A stretch of 64,000 bases of DNA from Eledone cirrhosa (lineage: Eukaryota): assembly GCA_964016885.1 (NCBI GenBank), contig OZ024741.1, forward strand, positions 353,958,001-354,022,000, in the 5' to 3' direction. The notes under the pieces are model-generated. The model was not told the origin of the DNA. It was given only the letters and a program-made list of their open reading frames with translations, and ran no database searches. Of the stretch, positions 3,878 to 56,942 are shown piece after piece; positions within the stretch are counted from its first letter, which is position 1, and each line of letters opens with the position of its first letter. The position numbers and the translations under genes are program-made.

Positions 3878-3937
<60 letters not shown>

Positions 3938-4194
3938 ATACTTGGGGAGGGTCATATTTGTGTAATATTGCCAGAATTTATAACAGAACACACTCACTGT
4001 TTGGTTGGTTTTCGCTTCTGTGTCTTTTATATCGATAATCTAATTTATTCGCTCCTCAATGTTTCACAAAAATACGTTGGAATGCAAAAGTAAACAACAA
4101 CAACAACAATAATAACGAAATATGTGTTTCGACACACGATTTCATATAAAAAGCCTCGCAAAACTATATATATGTATATATATATATATATGTG

Positions 4195-4297: not shown

Positions 4298-4302
<5 letters not shown>

Positions 4303-4492
4303 AACCAGTAAGACCCCGACAGCTGAGCTCAAGCCGTTTCGACGGCTAATTCTGGACAGAATTAGCCGTCGAAACGGCTTGAGCTCAGCTGTCGGGGTCT
4401 TACTGGTTCCTATTACCCACTCTACTACCTCAAGTATTGAGTACTTTGGTGCGTTATGGTCCACCTGGTTCCTTACCACATTTCCTTCGTTA
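4298..4492 (+). mobile_element. Fold-back insertion in (TA)n: 57-bp perfect hairpin plus ~80-bp unpaired tail; carries the 3' half of a hammerhead
   Basis: 4298-4354 is the exact reverse complement of 4357-4413; right arm has GAAA-cggct..agctg-TC; TA tracts on both sides. Confidence 0.75.
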
Positions 4493-4517: not shown

Positions 4518-4814
4518 GGGAAAAAAAGATGAAATAGAAAATGCAACTGGAGTCTTTTTAAGAATATTTATTTGGTTTCTTTACCGGTTTCGCAGTTCTT
4601 GTGCTTTTCAAAAGTAGAATTGAGATGGAGGGTTTGTGGTCCTCCATCTCAATTCTACTTTTGAAAAGCACAAGAACTGCGAAACCGGTAAAGGAACCAA
4701 ATAAATATTCTTAAAAAGACTCCAGTTGCATTTTCGATTTCATCTTTTTTTTTCCTTATACTTTCACTTGTGTAGGACATCTCGCTTTTTTTTTCATTTT
4801 GGAAAAAAAAACTC

Positions 4815-4822: not shown

Positions 4823-4907
<85 letters not shown>

Positions 4908-4912
<5 letters not shown>

Positions 4913-5309
4913 AATAGGATTTCGCTTCAAGCGTAGCTTTATACAATATGTATAGAAATGTCGTATTTCGAAAGAAATACGATTTTAGGAAGCCGTAGTT
5001 ATGCGAACACCGGGAGGCTATCCTATTTCTTTTCTATTATAAGTTGATATGCAGCTTCATATGCAAATGAGATTAATCACCTCATTTACACAGACGAGAA
5101 AACTATATATTCCCGGCTGTTTTCAAGTCCAGCAGTCGCAGAGCAGTGGGAGGGATCGTCCTGACGATGGCCAGTCAAGCCTGAAATGCATAGACGGTTG
5201 TCCCCCTTGCTTCTGCTGGACAACACCAGAGGGCGTTAGCACCCCCGGTGTTCGCATAGCTACGGCTTCCTAACATCGTATTTCTTTCGAAATTCGAAAT
5301 GTCTATACA
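4908..5309 (+). mobile_element. Hammerhead-bearing tandem unit (retrozyme / PLE pLTR-like), copy 1 (5022-5309), preceded by an inverted segment (4908-5021)
   Basis: 5022-5300 is near-identical to 6788-7075; 4908-5021 is the reverse complement of the unit's end-to-start junction. Confidence 0.8.
5154..5199 (+). ncRNA. Minimal type I hammerhead ribozyme
   Basis: gatcgtc-CTGACGA-tggc cagtcaa gcct-GAAA-tgca-TA-gacggtt; canonical core, palindromic stem III ATGCAT. Confidence 0.85.
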
Positions 5310-6758
5310 TCTATACTATAAAGCTGACGGCCGTATGCCGTATGTAAGTAACAAACTTTCCGCCAAGCGGCTGGACCAAACGGCACCAAATTTGCAACAT
5401 ACATGTAACTTTTTCCAAATAAGAAAGTGAGGGTATTTTTGTCTACTGAATTTCATAACGTCTTCACGAACCAAAGTATCATCTTCCTGTTTTCTTTCGG
5501 ATACAACGTTTTTCGAAATATTTACTTCTGCGTTCACAGATTGATTTTTTTTTTGTAGTTTCAGAAGATCCCGTCAAGGGTGAAAGCAGCGATTCTTTGC
5601 TTAAACTTTAATCTGTTATTTTAATATATATATATTTATATAATTACATATTCGTGTACAGATATTTTTGTATACACAAAAACAAAATATAAACAAACGT
5701 ATTTATATCACGAAAGCACAGACGGCTTATCGTCATTGTTACTGCCGATATGCCACCCAAAAAGTCCTAGCCTGGCCGCAAGATCAGATTTTCCAGAAGA
5801 AAAAATGTTACTAGAGCAACAGAGAGACTAAGCTTCGCGATTACCATCAACAAAGCTCAGGGTCAAACCCTAAAAGTGGCTGGCCTTCATCTGGGAAAAC
5901 CATGGCCAATTGTATGTAGGATGATCTAGGGTGAGCTAAGGAAGAGGAGAGGAAGGAGATAAGGAGAAAAGAAACCTACAATGAAAGAACATCTTAAAGT
6001 TTACCCAAGCCAAATGTATTTATTAACATTTCTATCTGCAGGTTCTTAGCAAGCTTACTGGCGCTTTAGTATGGTATTTTCTCATATCGTTTTTGATTGA
6101 TATGGTGCATATATCGCAGCTATTCATATGTTTTAAACATTAGATAACGATTGGTGATGTATATTGTACGGCAGAATTAGCTGAAAAATATTTTGAATGA
6201 ACAAATAAGAGAGATATAAAAGAAAGATGTTTGTTGGTTGGTTCCCTCGCGTATCACAGGAAAAAGACGAAAAGTGACAATCGGAAAGTATGTACAGGAT
6301 TGGGATAAGAGTATATACAGGAAAGTTTATTGATACTAATTTTATAACACCAAAGAAGAAGAAAGACATACCACGTATGCTAACCAACCTGACTGCTATT
6401 TCTAGCAGGTTGGGAATCAACCATAAGGGATTCTCTCTGCGAGTTCGTTGTCAGTGATGATCGTGTTTCGTGGCCTATGTCTCCGATTCCAACGGTGGAT
6501 TACACACACACACACACACACATACACACACACACATGCACACGCACACACACGAACACTCACACAGGCAAACACATACATATATATACACGGACACACA
6601 CACACACAAACATACACACACACATACACACACCTACACACACACTCACACAATACACACACTGTAAACAATACAATGCATTCAATACAGACGTTTTCTC
6701 TTCTGCCGGTCTTCTCTTGTCATTTGTTAACTTTGGCGAAGCTGGGTACCTCAGCTAG
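5310..6758 (+). mobile_element. Non-autonomous Helitron (1449 bp)
   Basis: 5' TCTATACTATAAAG, 3' GGCGAAGCTGGGTACCTCAGCTAG, inserted between host A5309 and T6759 with no TSD; rejoined flank CTATACATATTGTATAAAG matches the uninterrupted inverted copy at 4937-4955; internal blocks shared with 45490-45605 and 46434-46502. Confidence 0.85.
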
Positions 6759-7075
6759 TATTGTATAAAGCTAAGCTTGAAGCGAAATCCTATTTCTTTT
6801 CTATTATAAGTTGAGCCAACTTATGCAGCTTCATGTGCAAATGAGATTAATCACCTCATTTACACAGACGAGAAAACTATATATTCTCGGCTGTTTTCAA
6901 CTCCAGCAGTCGCAGAACAGTGGGAGGGATCGTCCTGACGATGGCCAGTCAAGTCTGAAATGCATAGACGGTCGTCCCCCTTGCTTCTGCTGGACAACAC
7001 CAGAGGGCGTTAGCCTCCCGGTGTTCGCATAGCTACGGCTTCCTAAAATCGTATTTCTTTTGAAATACGAAATAT
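6759..7075 (+). mobile_element. Hammerhead-bearing tandem unit, copy 2
   Basis: Direct repeat of 5022-5300 plus the unit start TATTGTATAAAGCT. Confidence 0.8.
6928..6973 (+). ncRNA. Minimal type I hammerhead ribozyme (second copy)
   Basis: gatcgtc-CTGACGA-tggc cagtcaa gtct-GAAA-tgca-TA-gacggtc. Confidence 0.8.
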
Positions 7076-8014
7076 ATATATATTCTACTGAAAAAAATGT
7101 TCTTCCTTTCTACTATTTATATATATCAACTCGCGTGTTATTTTTCTACATTCGATATATATATATATGGTGGCTGCCAACTCGTTTTCGAGTACGGCCA
7201 CTACTTTATATCCATGTAGGAGAACCCCTACCGATGCGCTGAACGAGTGTGACTTTTTAGTCCAGCCAGCGACTTGAAAACTCTGGTACAAACACTACAC
7301 TTGTGACAATTATTGACACATAGTGCTGGGCCCATGGTACCATGTGACGACAAGTGCAGAGAGATCTCCAGATATAAAGCAATGCCTGTGCTGTGAAGCT
7401 TTTATAGTGAGCAAAGGCACTGCACAAAGCCAGTCCCACTCTCTTAACCAAGATGATATTTACCAAAAAAAGAACAAGTCAACATCATTGGATACCATCA
7501 GGGTTGCAGGTGTATATCAGAGTTTTCCTTCTCCTAGAATATACATACATGCATCCATACATACATACATACATACATACATACATACATACATACATAC
7601 ATACATACATACATACATACATACATACATACATACATACATACATGATGTTTGTGTCAATGTGGGTATGTGTAGATATATTTGGGTGGGTTGGTATGTA
7701 TATGACTGTATGTGTCAACATCTAATTTATTTTTAGAAATAAATTATTGATGCCTTTGTGATGTTGAAGTAGTGAGGAGAAAGAGGATGAGAAGGGGGAG
7801 GGGATAAAACAGAGAAAACGTTGGGAGACAAGGAGAGTAATGTGGATGGAGAAAATAAAGGAGATGATACAGAGCCGGTGGCTGGAAATAGGGAGATAAG
7901 TTATACTTGGTAACAACAAAAACAGCCCACACTTCATGAAACAATTTCTATACTTTTGGTAATTCATTTCATTTCTTGCTAACTTGCAGAAAATTCAATA
8001 ATCTCCGAAAAAAT

Positions 8015-9675: not shown

Positions 9676-9713
9676 TTTCTGACGATGTGTGTGACAGAAA
9701 GCTGTGTAGAAAT
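9676..9713 (+). ncRNA. Degenerate hammerhead motif downstream of a small fold-back (9619-9669)
   Basis: ttt-CTGACGA-tgt gtgtg aca-GAAA-gctgtg-TA-gaa; stem III imperfect. Confidence 0.45.
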
Positions 9714-23905: not shown

Positions 23906-24062
23906 AGGAGGTGAGTTTTATTGTAGCACAATAAAGCAATGCAAATATCGGATAAGTAGCACTCAACAGTTTATTGGACTGGAGTATATATAAGACACTA
24001 CCTTGTTTAGACACTACCTTGCTCACAAGTATCTTTTTTAAGCTGCATATCATGTCTCCCTA

Positions 24063-24129
24063 TTTTATCTGATGAGAACGCAAATATCGTCCCTGGATGA
24101 TATTTGTTTTTGAAATGCGCATAATAAAA
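24063..24129 (+). ncRNA. Type I hammerhead ribozyme, canonical core
   Basis: ttttat-CTGATGA-gaac gcaaatatcgtcc ct ggatgatatttgt tttt-GAAA-tgcgca-TA-ataaaa; 6-bp stem I, palindromic stem III ATGCGCAT. Confidence 0.85.
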
Positions 24130-24169
24130 TACATGAAACTTTTTTAGCCATCTTTTAATTTCTTCTTAT

Positions 24170-24788
24170 ATATATAATTGGATATATGAGAGGGGTGAAC
24201 ACAGATATAAGTATACATGTGTTCCAATTGCAGATGACCAAGTTAGCTAGGTTGAAAAATACTAATTTAAAACAATATGGTTTGCCTGACTCGATTTAAA
24301 GTAATAAATCAATAAAAATAACAAACCTATATCGGGCAATAGCCTTTGAAACCCGGACAGATCTAAATCTGTTTCGCAAGAATTATTAAGTGAAAGCCAG
24401 AATTCCCGTGCTCATCTGCGGGTATCCAGGAAAATTCGTACCTTTCACTTCAAAGGATCTAAGAAGACTGCATGTTATGCTGATATAAACGCACATGTCG
24501 CAGCGCCTAGTGCGTCTCATACTCATGTCGCTAAAAATAACAGCTGGGTTTATGAGACTATGTTATTTTTATTGATTTGTTACTTTAAATCGAGTCAGGC
24601 AAACCATATTGTTTTAAATTAGTATTTTTTCAACCTAGCTAACTTCGTCATTTGCAATTGGAACACATGTATACTTATATATGTGTTCATCCCTCTCATA
24701 TATCCAATTATATTACACGGCTCGGCAAGATTCCCTTCTTTGAGCTATTTAATAGTAAAAGACTATTTTAAGTTTATAACTCAATCTA

Positions 24789-28347: not shown

Positions 28348-28721
28348 AAGAAAGAAGAGTAACATGGTAGGCTGTACAATGAGGGTTTTATTTAAAGTAC
28401 TGACAATTGTTTCGTTGATCAGATGGATCTAGAGTTCGTTAATCACTTGGTGCTGTGTCAATCGATCTCCAATATATTGTTTATAACTGTTCAACTCATC
28501 AAAGCACATAGAAATGAAAATAATTTGCTCGAGGCAAGACTTATATAGAAAAGTAGCGTAACACCAAAACAATAACATCAATAATAAAATCACTAATAAA
28601 ATAGCGTTTAAATAAAACAATAAACATCAATAGTAAAACATGTATGGTAAATAGATGGAGAAGTTACAGATGTAAATCAGTAAAATCGGATAGGGTACAT
28701 TAAAAAGTAATAGTACTAATA

Positions 28722-29416
28722 AGAAAAACTATAAAACTTTCATACTCTACTGCAGCCACAGCCAATATAGAATCGCACATACGTAAGATCAGCCACAAAA
28801 ATATCTCTAAAGAAATTAACCTAACTACGCGCACCATAGCACCAAATACAAAACACAAACATATAGCAAAATCACAACCACAAATACATCAGAACGCATC
28901 ACAACAAAACATTAATAGGCTTAAATCACAACCCACCCACAACAACTTACAAAAACGCAACAACAAACCTGCACAAAATAAAACCTCAAATTGTAATTGC
29001 CATCTACCAGATAAGTGTCCATTACAGAATAGATGCCTGGATTCCAGCTTGGTATACATGTGTACTGTGAATTCAGGCAACTCTACCTGGCATTACATAG
29101 GTTCCACACCTGGGGAGTTTAAGAAAAGATGGTACGTCCACAGACACTCGATGAGGAACCGCGCATTGGAGAATTCTACAACGCTCGCCAATAAAATCTG
29201 GCAGCTTAAGGACAAATCCTAGAATATAACATCAGTTGGTCGAAATTATCGACAGCCAAAGCCTACAAAAACGGTATGTCCCACTGCGGGCTCTGTAATT
29301 TAGAACTACTACATATTTTAAGGTACGATAGGATGCTGCTCAACAGCAAAATAGAAAAATCCATTTTCTGCAGGCATAAAATAGCTACTAGATTTACGAA
29401 CTTCAAACCACCATGA
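28722..29416 (+). pseudogene. PLE GIY-YIG endonuclease domain (one frameshift near 29218)
   Basis: KTIKLSYST..CNCHLPDKCPLQNRCLDSSLVYMCTV..YIGSTPGEFKKRWYVHRHS..NSTTLANKIWQLK / YNISW..CGLCNLE..LLNSKIE..CRHK. Confidence 0.9.
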
Positions 29417-30081
29417 TTTGAACCAGCAATCCCAAAATTAATACTAAACCACATAGATTTTAACATATAGAATACACACTATCGCACGTGGTGCGATAGT
29501 GTGTATTCTATATGTTAAAATTAGCTATCAAACTGCCAACAAATCACTGGACCATAAATCTCTATACACTTCTTCCACCTCTCTCCACCAAACTCATTAA
29601 GATAATACAACCAGCAAACATTTATCAAAAGCCCTGTCAACTCATATGTATCATAAATCAATTAATCTCTAATTTATTGTCTCTCCTCTGCCGGACCCTC
29701 TACACAAAGTTATCTAGACCTCAAATCTGGTTTCTCATGTAGCACCAAAAACATTTTGTCAAAATCTACTAAAATTTAATTCTATGTACACTTTCTGACC
29801 CCTTTATTCCTTTATTTTATTACTTTTATTTTTTTATTTCTTTGTATTCTCCATCTCCTCATCTTCTTATTAGTACTATTACTTTTTAATGTACCCTATC
29901 CGATTTTACTGATTTACATCTGTAACTTCTCCATCTATTTACCATACATGTTTTACTATTGATGTTTATTGTTTTATTTAAACGCTATTTTATTAGTGAT
30001 TTTATTATTGATGTTATTGTTTTGGTGTTACGCTACTTTTCTATATAAGTCTTGCCTCGAGTAAATTATTTTCATTTCTAT

Positions 30082-30192
30082 GTGCTTTGATGAGTTGAAC
30101 AGTTATAAACAATGTATTGGAGATCGATTGACACAACACCAAGTTATTAGCGAACTCTAGACACATCTGATCAACGAAACAATTGTCAGTAC
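30082..30192 (+). ncRNA. Type I hammerhead in the pLTR, long stem II insert (mirror copy at ~28396-28507 on the - strand)
   Basis: gtgct-TTGATGA-gttgaacag..ctgatcaac-GAAA-caattg-TC-agtac; GUC site; C3U in both arms. Confidence 0.75.
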
Positions 30193-30413
30193 TTTAAATA
30201 AAACCCTTATTGTACAGCCTACCATGTTACTCTTCTTTCTTTAAATATTATTACTCCAAGTATAACCTACATAGTAATTACCGCGAACTCGCTACATAGC
30301 TATGAAAACATCTTGTTGAGTCAAACAAAGCCGTACGTTAAAACTATCCACAACCCGGAGTACTCTAACTGGATTACCTCTAACTGGATTACCTATAACG
30401 ATAACTTGTTATC

Positions 30414-51906: not shown

Positions 51907-52025
51907 AATATACAAATGACTTCTACAAGACTAGAACTGTTTCATTCGTATGAAATCATCAGAACATTCCTGATGATTTCATACGAATGAAACAATTCTA
52001 GTCCTGTAGAAGTCATTTCTATATT
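51907..52025. repeat. Short fold-back whose arms begin at a hammerhead core
   Basis: 51914-51962 inverted against 51970-52018; CTGATGA-tttc atac gaat-GAAA-caattc-TA-gtc; 5' strand of stem I is missing. Confidence 0.7.
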
Positions 52026-55783: not shown

Positions 55784-55924
55784 GAACCAAATAAATTTTT
55801 TTTTTTTAAATAAGACTCCAGTTGCATTTTCGATTTCATCTTTTTTTCTTTATACTTTCACTCGTGTAGGACACTTCGGTTATTTTTCACTTTGTAAAAA
55901 AAAACCCTCACTTTCTAATATATA

Positions 55925-56942
55925 TACCCTCCTACTGTTTTTAGAAACTTCGTAAATAATATCAGTACTAGAATCTCTAACCTCTCCTCTAATAAAGCAA
56001 TCTTTGACAGAGCGGCCCCCTACTATAGCACGGCGTTAGCTATCAGCGGCTTCTCGCAACCAATTACTTACTCCCCCTCTAACACCAGCAGCAATAAGAA
56101 AAGAAATCGTAACAATAGACAAACTATCTGGTTCTCTCCTCCCTTTTTACTCAACGTTAAAACTAATGTAGGAAAAAAATGTTAGCCCTCTTAGATAGAT
56201 ACTTTCCCATAGCTCACAAATGCCACTCCACCTTTAACAGACACAGAGTAGAACTAGGGTACTCCTGTGCTAAGAATATGAAGGCCCACATCACCAACAG
56301 TCCTAAGAGCGGCACCCCACCAGGATGCTCTTGCCGAAAGCCTGAAGCTTGTCCCCTTCAACAGCAATGCAACACGCCCGCTTTAGTTTATGAAACTGTG
56401 GTCACTTCCAACCGACCAAATCAACCACCGGAAGTCAAAACCTCTGTGGGTATGGCGGAGGGCCGATTTAAGGAACGCTTCCTCAACCATCAAGGACTCA
56501 GGTATAGACTACTCCATTCAATGGAAAGCCATCACTAAGTCCAAGCCATACGCAAGGGGCAATCCGTCTTGTGGACTGTGTATTGAAGAATGGATAAATA
56601 TTCTAAGGAGATTACGCAATAGCGTTTGCCTAAATTCAAGAAATGAAATCTTCTAACGTTGTCCACATGTCTGGAAACACCTCTTGCATAACTACAAAGC
56701 TCCGGGTTGAATACCAACAACATTCTAATTTTCTAATCAACTCGAACATTTTATTTCGGACATTCGCAGTTATCTCCCTTACACTTTTCGCCCGTGGTTT
56801 TGTTTCGCTTTGATGAAGTAACCGCTTCTGCCCATGTGCGTTCATACGGTTCTTCTTCCTGTTTCGTATAACCATTACCAGTCCAAGCTGAAGATCCGCA
56901 TAATTGTTCTCAGTATGGTGAACTAACTGTTGTGTTACTACA
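55925..56942 (+). mobile_element. 5'-truncated Penelope-like element (RT thumb, linker, GIY-YIG, 3'UTR/pLTR)
   Basis: PPTVFRNFVNNISTRISNLSSNKAIFDRAAPYYSTALAISGF..IWFSPPF..FNRHRVELGYSC..CSCRKPEACPLQQQC..LVYE..VGMAEGRFKERFLNH..CGLCIEE..LNSRNEIF*RCPH; ends in (TA)n. Confidence 0.9.

Follow-up and report, generated by a model that had tools for sequence, protein, structure and literature searches.

A 325-nt hammerhead repeat with Penelope-type ends in Eledone cirrhosa: a probable two-armed insertion split by a Helitron

Introduction

In the window analysed here, a stretch of 64,000 nucleotides from Eledone cirrhosa, two near-identical non-coding units that each carry a hammerhead motif lie on either side of a long insert, next to an inverted copy of part of the same unit. 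This arrangement raises the question of what kind of element was inserted at this place, and of which enzymatic machinery copied it. The initial annotation, made from the sequence of the window, had proposed an animal retrozyme, i.e., a short non-coding tandem repeat giving rise to circular RNAs and mobilised by Penelope-like elements (PLEs). The mobilisation of animal retrozymes by PLEs has already been proposed, in the available part of the source without evidence from insertion ends or from a partner (PMC7229834), and a later work argues for counting animal retrozymes among the non-autonomous PLEs (Li, Clavereau, Pollet 2026, 10.64898/2026.07.22.740005).

Anatomy of the locus

Coordinates along the unit run from q1 to q325, starting at window position 6759, and the predicted hammerhead cut falls at q208/q209. 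Two 3' ends recur throughout the family, and they will be called site 1 and site 2. The locus (window 4823-7084) opens with a (TA)n microsatellite at 4823-4907, the left target, and closes with a short (TA)n at 7070-7084, the right target, both read directly from the sequence. Between them, alignments place an inverted arm on the reverse strand at 4908-5020, which consists of the unit 3' end (about q255-325), the unit-to-unit junction and a 41-nt tail, and which ends at site 2. It is followed on the forward strand by the direct arm, made of unit 1 (5020-5309, 5'-truncated, q29-325) and unit 2 (6759-7075, q1-317, ending at site 1), with the insert in between at 5310-6758. The unit itself is 325 nt long, with a GC content of 43.7% and a longest ATG-to-stop frame of 74 codons.

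The alignment of units 1 and 2 shows 12 differences over 287 aligned bases, as well as 8 gap columns, and it confirmed the pair of type I hammerheads that had been annotated, with predicted cuts after 5192 and after 6966. By alignment and predicted fold, hammerhead 1 occupies 5147-5208 on the forward strand (core at 5161) and has a U-U at the base of helix II, while hammerhead 2 occupies 6921-6982 on the same strand (core at 6935) and carries private changes that weaken helices I and II. The annotation was equally right that taking out the 1449-bp insert sets the two units head to tail: 5193-5309 plus 6759-6966 leave 325 nt between the predicted cuts, against 1,774 nt with the insert in place. 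Because the insert splits it, the locus cannot release the 325-nt monomer. As for the inverted copy, the reverse complement of 4908-5020 aligns with the unit 3' end and continues across an intact junction into q1-41, as had been described; it had also been counted as independent evidence for that junction, which it is not, because both arms belong to one and the same insertion. The locus is an old, decayed, transposon-interrupted copy of a 325-base non-coding repeat.

Helitrons have a 5' TC, a 3' CTRR end and a subterminal 3' hairpin about 11 nt from that end, and they insert between A and T without target duplication. The insert at 5310-6758 (forward strand, non-autonomous) shares most of these features, as its ends read ACA|TC at 5310 and CTAG|T at 6758, it lies at the A|T of the unit junction, and no target duplication is seen. 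It also has many copies (4,827 first-look candidates, 40 of them scored at 85-95% identity), and the CTAG|T end recurs in others of them. Its subterminal hairpin is decayed in the window (fold z -1.6) and intact in the related inserts of loci L008 and L082. At least five further loci (L008, L082, L267, L319 and L323) carry a Helitron-type insert at this very base of the junction, with both insert ends seen in the first three, and 186 unit-to-unit junctions are intact in the fetched loci; elsewhere in the unit, the patterns used revealed no such insert. The junction is TA-like, and such Helitrons favour TA-like sites. The Helitron is a later insertion that broke the window copy.

The hammerhead

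Both cores read CUGACGA...GAAAUGCAUA, with a stem I formed by ATCGTC/GACGGT and a predicted cleavage at AUA|GACG. In the predicted fold, helix I has 6 bp and is prolonged by an internal loop and an outer stem of 4 bp. Helix II has 4 bp and a loop of 7 nt, and helix III is a single base pair capped by UGCA, the resulting AUGCAU being palindromic. This is not the minimal hammerhead that had been annotated. The minimal motifs of PLEs (min-HHR) are described as having no helix III, a long helix II (7-8 bp) and a short helix I (PMC4209133), and we rejected this class in view of the 6-bp helix I with its outer stem, the 4-bp helix II and the palindromic helix III. The motif belongs to the canonical type I hammerheads of metazoans, a form that works as a dimer (PMC4209133). 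The more general statement that retrozymes carry minimal hammerheads has to be turned around as well, since the parts of the literature at hand assign canonical hammerheads to retrozymes and minimal ones to PLEs (PMC7229834, PMC4209133).

At the gathering score, Rfam gave no match in the window. When the two window hammerheads were folded without constraints, the active structure was not preferred (z 0.19 and -0.68), and for hammerhead 2 the active fold is predicted at -6.0 kcal/mol against -20.3 kcal/mol for an alternative one. At the scale of the genome (3.0 Gb), the core pattern returned 2,316 matches and its reversed control 5, so the core is not a product of chance. Helix II was compared at 271 distinct sites in the fetched loci, where it is AGGC/GCCT in 100 and TGGC/GCCT in 89, the rarer forms GAAC/GTTC, AGAC/GTCT and GGAC/GTTC being found in 4 each. 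In 12 copies hand-picked via the core pattern to span the subfamilies, and related by descent, 92% of the cells are paired, and double-sided changes affect 3 of the 4 helix II pairs, 2 of the 6 helix I pairs and 5 of the 15 pairs overall. A pattern search with the core left free gave 1,388 matches. In a hand count of the first 100 listed, N7 varies 20 times, G5 8 times, C3 5, G8 4, A6 3, and U4 and A9 once each. The neutral position N7 thus accepts changes that its CpG partner G8 does not, which points to selection acting on the ribozyme in the source elements. Finally, the monomer folded as a circle reaches a predicted -88.4 kcal/mol (z -3.3, 65% paired), and none of 100 shuffles did as well.

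The family across the genome

Copies of the unit are about 70% to 96% identical to that of the window across subfamilies. Among the 89 loci drawn from the first 100 core-pattern matches, 3 have no match to the unit. All the locus samples were picked by similarity or exact motifs and are skewed toward the first contigs. Of 368 segments taken from 225 loci, 145 stop at site 1 (about q325), 140 at site 2 (q30-56) and 83 at other positions, which defines two fixed 3' ends separated by about 45 nt. In a set of 275 segments, 185 of the 210 canonical 3' ends adjoin a dinucleotide microsatellite (TA in 168), and neighbouring segments of opposite orientation are head-to-head in 84 instances and tail-to-tail in 2. 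The head-to-head pairs (126 in number) follow a strict end rule: of the 74 with two canonical ends, 67 have one end of each type (p 1e-13). The window arms obey it, the left one carrying the tail and the right one ending at site 1.

The non-coding 325-nt tandem unit of retrozyme type that the annotation had recognised therefore stands, but arrays are not its main form, since the family is mostly made of dispersed, two-armed insertions of 1-2 units, truncated in 5' at random positions. It displays the hallmarks of non-autonomous PLEs, namely 5' truncation, partial tandems, an inverted copy and a tail of 30-50 nt, and these Penelope-type ends argue well for the mobilisation by PLEs that had been put forward. 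Simple patterns found no Pol III A or B boxes in the unit, and a search for unit-unit pairs with arms of different subfamilies gave a weak result, with 4 of 107 at or below 60% concordance. We also observed copies at a spacing of about 60 kb or shorter at G000:C12:16.96-17.48 Mb, C1:143.3-143.8 Mb and C6:70.45-70.55 Mb; they are inside large segmental repeats and slightly inflate the copy counts.

We consider it likely that the window locus is a single two-armed insertion of the 325-nt hammerhead repeat, with Penelope-type ends, that was later split by the Helitron, and that was probably copied by a borrowed PLE reverse transcriptase (RT) and endonuclease (EN). Source copies would be transcribed, and two adjacent hammerheads would pair through AUGCAU and excise a monomer, which would then be ligated to a circle. 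A PLE complex would nick both strands of a TA repeat, and reverse transcription would start at internal positions of the RNA, one strand being primed at site 1 and the other at site 2. Low processivity would leave arms of 0.2-2 units, rarely of 10, and the two cDNAs would be joined 5'-to-5' via short microhomology.

Circular or linear template

If a cleaved linear monomer were the template, the 5' ends of the copies would cluster at q209. Among the 89 segments anchored by the 3' motif, 3 start at q204-214, where about 3 are expected by chance, and 68 run past the cut site. Since the copies pass this site, the template must have been continuous there, and it was either a circle or an uncleaved RNA. 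We lean slightly toward the former, i.e., toward a monomer that would be ligated into a circle. The competing explanation, which we judge rather unlikely, keeps the mobility by PLEs but takes as template a linear RNA that was read through from a tandem source locus and left uncleaved, so that the hammerhead only trims transcripts and no circle is used. Indeed, the available text on the PAc element describes it as using unprocessed RNA in vitro, uncleaved RNA being inserted and hammerhead mutants still inserting (PMC11167929), so a read-through of the cut site needs no circle. Most runs are shorter than 2.2 units, a length that a dimer, a trimer or an array could supply, and there is an array on the same contig as the window. 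However, the head-to-tail period persists in subfamilies whose identity ranges from about 70% to 96%, although copies are constantly truncated in 5', which calls for some way to regenerate tandems; furthermore, helix II covaries across subfamilies, and the predicted circular form of the monomer is strongly self-paired. Against excision by the hammerhead, 8 of 9 retrozyme dimers of Xenopus are reported without cleavage in vitro in the part of the work at hand (10.64898/2026.07.22.740005).

Tandem arrays, which the annotation had proposed to look for in the genome as ORF-less repeats, do exist but are rare: there are 67 intact dimer matches and 4 longer ones for 2,316 cores, and one array of 10.5 units at G000:C2:83,920,630-83,923,924 (L355 6631-9925). 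An intact natural dimer lies, for instance, at G000:C2:206436868-206437204. A private stem I variant is common to all 10 array units holding the site, whereas elsewhere T is found in 11 of 346. The array contains a later 5-unit duplication, and its structure fits either about five rounds on one template followed by this duplication, or a local amplification. The same array has retained its CpGs, and on visual inspection it seems rich in transversions. We also compared the divergence within runs (8.8%) to that between unrelated copies (12.5%) as a test of rolling copying, and rejected it as swamped by decay; successive units of a run share 45 of about 1,000 rare variants, and decay hides any single-template signal.

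Mixed insertions and the candidate enzyme donor

Family B is a PLE with a C-terminal EN and a CX4CxxC linker, of the Neptune or Nematis type, which has open frames of more than 1,100 aa in the genome. For this family, Pfam returned only a weak RVT_1 match, and it gave no match for four PLE fragments; a PDB sequence search with family B gave 0 matches. Two loci, L310 and L311, hold autonomous copies of family B with open frames of 1,217 and 1,155 aa and an asparagine-rich insert.

In five insertions (L073, L121, L138/L309, L299 and L332), an inverted 3' end of the B lineage is joined to a unit arm without TA between them. In the first three, the B arm reaches into the end of the ORF, has its own tail in or beside (TA)n, and meets, 5' to 5', a unit arm that stops at site 1; L121 contains a duplicated stretch. 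L299 has a non-coding B-type end without tail, and the unit arm opposite to it stops at site 2. L332 is similar, but 85 nt of filler are present and its unit end is not canonical. Such joints thus concern 5 of 152 free ends, where the local density of B pieces would predict 0.7 (P 8e-4), in a 115-nt window that was fixed after the cases had been seen; with a 55-nt window, which holds three cases, we calculate a probability of about 0.005. The end types are complementary in all 4 informative cases, microhomology is found at the joints of L073 and L121, and the rest of B is absent downstream of the joint in the two cases read (L073 and L309). A DNA search with the L073 junction for more mixed loci gave plain B copies only.

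These mixed loci could be chance neighbours within shared TA targets, fused by a later deletion and devoid of any information on a partner, an explanation that we find doubtful. It draws on the fact that B and the unit both target (TA)n, on the existence of neighbours with TA between them (L180 and L315), and on the small number of cases, five, in a window chosen post hoc. Yet all five are head-to-head, with their 3' ends outward and joints free of TA target, and the missing remainder of B, the microhomologies and the four complementary pairs of ends are also at odds with a fortuitous neighbourhood. Among the PLE ends of the flanks, B is the commonest, with 83 against 2 for the Hydra-type family A, so its lead may reflect its abundance; family A is found in none of the mixed insertions, which is uninformative, as 0.02 would be expected. 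A partnership specific to B is also called into question by other fusions of the unit. At L012, L038, L171 and L267 it is fused with two other hammerhead families, by microhomology or without TA break, which suggests that PLE-type RNAs can be switched as templates; at L200, its partner is a Hydra-like RT fragment without EN.

The likeliest enzyme donor appears to be family B, because several insertions have a B 3' end as their opposite arm; where one arm is B's own message, B's protein would likely be the enzyme. The simplest reading is that of a PLE complex with two active sites that would load whichever competent RNAs are present, and the protein of the anole PLE has been predicted to be such a two-active-site complex (PMC11167929). 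We further propose, tentatively and as a possibility just short of evenly balanced, that a Penelope integration complex can carry two different RNAs and copy one of them per strand of the TA break, that the mixed insertions thereby name a non-homologous partner (B), and that circles are recognised by their shape. With a partner B that has no detectable shared sequence, the circles would indeed be recognised by shape rather than descend from a B terminal repeat. If this is true, mixed insertions directly name the autonomous partner of a retrozyme. The value of the locus is mechanistic, as the end rule and the mixed insertions together give a specific candidate enzyme (family B), two start sites and a two-template prediction.

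The search for a coding parent

The retrozyme reading was set by the annotation against another one, in which the unit would always be the terminal repeat of a long coding PLE. In the sampled copies, 0 of the 137 free 5' ends enter an RT/EN frame of the same direction without a TA break; the unit of these copies does not flank an RT/GIY-YIG ORF in the same orientation, which supports the retrozyme reading. Of the two large autonomous PLE families studied, A and B, family A is of Hydra type with RWK, DKT and CxCX5C motifs, which are listed among Hydra features (PMC8557442), and it has 48,234 first-look candidates. It was tried as the parent and rejected, having no similarity to the unit. Locus L230 holds an autonomous Hydra-type PLE copy with a stop-to-stop frame of 741 aa. 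No significant homology was found between the unit and the 3' regions of B, B2 and A. A 20-nt motif that site 1 of the unit and the tail of B seemed to share by eye was also discarded (16/20 identical, 6 of 100 shuffles, not significant).

It is nonetheless conceivable that the units are orphan pseudo-LTRs, i.e., 5'-truncated ends of an autonomous PLE lying outside our sample. We hold this to be improbable, even though every end feature is PLE-like, the pseudo-LTR comparison covered families A, B and B2 and one window fragment, and in Xenopus 24 of 57 retrozyme families are reported to match Repbase transposable elements, 21 of 22 matched being PLEs, in the part of the work at hand (10.64898/2026.07.22.740005). 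Against it, the unit runs into its own start in the 186 intact junctions, the arms cover the whole period without reaching coding sequence, the 137 free 5' ends stay out of any PLE frame, and the hammerhead is canonical rather than a min-HHR. The 10.5-unit array and its internal duplication could also come from a conventional satellite that was spread by recombination of DNA and contains a hammerhead by accident, but this explanation is highly improbable and already largely refuted by the end structure, considering the dispersed copies, the fixed 3' and random 5' ends, the inversions, the TA targets and the few dimers and longer tandems for so many cores.

Comparison with known systems

Judged from its sequence, the element is an animal non-LTR retrozyme on every testable feature, and it also has the structure of a non-autonomous PLE. 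On the retrozyme side, it has a canonical type I hammerhead, a non-coding unit within 150-450 bp and below 50% GC, and a predicted circle that is self-paired, and its anatomy gives no sign of an LTR, a primer-binding site or a polypurine tract; at least two consecutive hammerhead units are found in the family, and at the window locus only when the Helitron is left out. On the PLE side, it has the anatomy of 5' truncation, tandem, inversion and tail, and an AT-rich or (TA)n target.

The closest likenesses are with the retrozymes described in the accessible part of PMC7229834. The axolotl Rtz331/HHR_Amex1 and the 350-390 bp repeats of mussels are likewise non-coding with a canonical type I hammerhead and a self-paired circle. 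HHR_Amex1 has the same 1-bp helix III with a palindromic tetraloop, and HHR_Amex2 has the U-U at the base of helix II that is seen here in one subfamily. The palindromic AUGCAU corresponds to the dimer design of axolotl and newt (PMC7229834, PMC4209133). In contrast to these retrozymes, the present family is mostly dispersed as two-armed insertions of 1-2 units with PLE tails in (TA)n. The PLE derivatives of Xenopus, as far as their description was available, are likewise mobilised by PLEs and occur as monomers, dimers and rare multimers; there, the link to PLEs is a homology of pseudo-LTRs, whereas here it is a physical co-insertion with a likely partner to which no homology was detected (10.64898/2026.07.22.740005).

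PLEs with an endonuclease, in the portions available of PMC8557442 and PMC11167929, show the same 5' truncation, partial tandems, inverted 5'-truncated copy and AT-rich targets, and, as here, a tail that is not always present and that spans the interval from one RT start site to another, downstream of the hammerhead. In particular, the anole PLE has two internal RT starts and an extension on two strands, in parallel to sites 1 and 2 (PMC11167929). Unlike these PLEs, the unit has no ORF, and its hammerhead is canonical instead of minimal. The strict pairing of one end of each type also sets it apart, PLEs being described there only with a tail that is often at one end (PMC8557442). A literature search in the main texts of open papers found no report of the 325-nt family or of mixed insertions, and the portion of PMC13282606 at hand makes no mention of hammerheads, ribozymes or retrozymes.

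Other hammerhead and two-armed features of the window

The window contains further features of these kinds. At 24055-24175, on the forward strand, lies a different type I hammerhead family with a long helix II and a palindromic ATGCGCAT helix III, which ends in (TA)n and has 13 related pieces in the fetched loci. A hammerhead-like core of B-type is found at 9679 (forward strand), and a palindromic pair of hammerhead-like cores, belonging to a common TA-inserted family, at 51962 (reverse strand) and 51970 (forward strand). As for PLE fragments, a short inverted and direct 3' end of family B lies in (TA)n at 3925-4170, with a tail on one arm only. A 5'-truncated Hydra-type PLE (CxCX5C linker, endonuclease at 28704-29219) lies between inverted terminal copies at 28350-30200, and a further A-like protein match is found at about 55,900-56,500. 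Finally, palindromic repeats in TA tracts at 4300-4420 and 4520-4760 recur beside many of the fetched loci, and they are probably two-armed insertions of other non-autonomous families.
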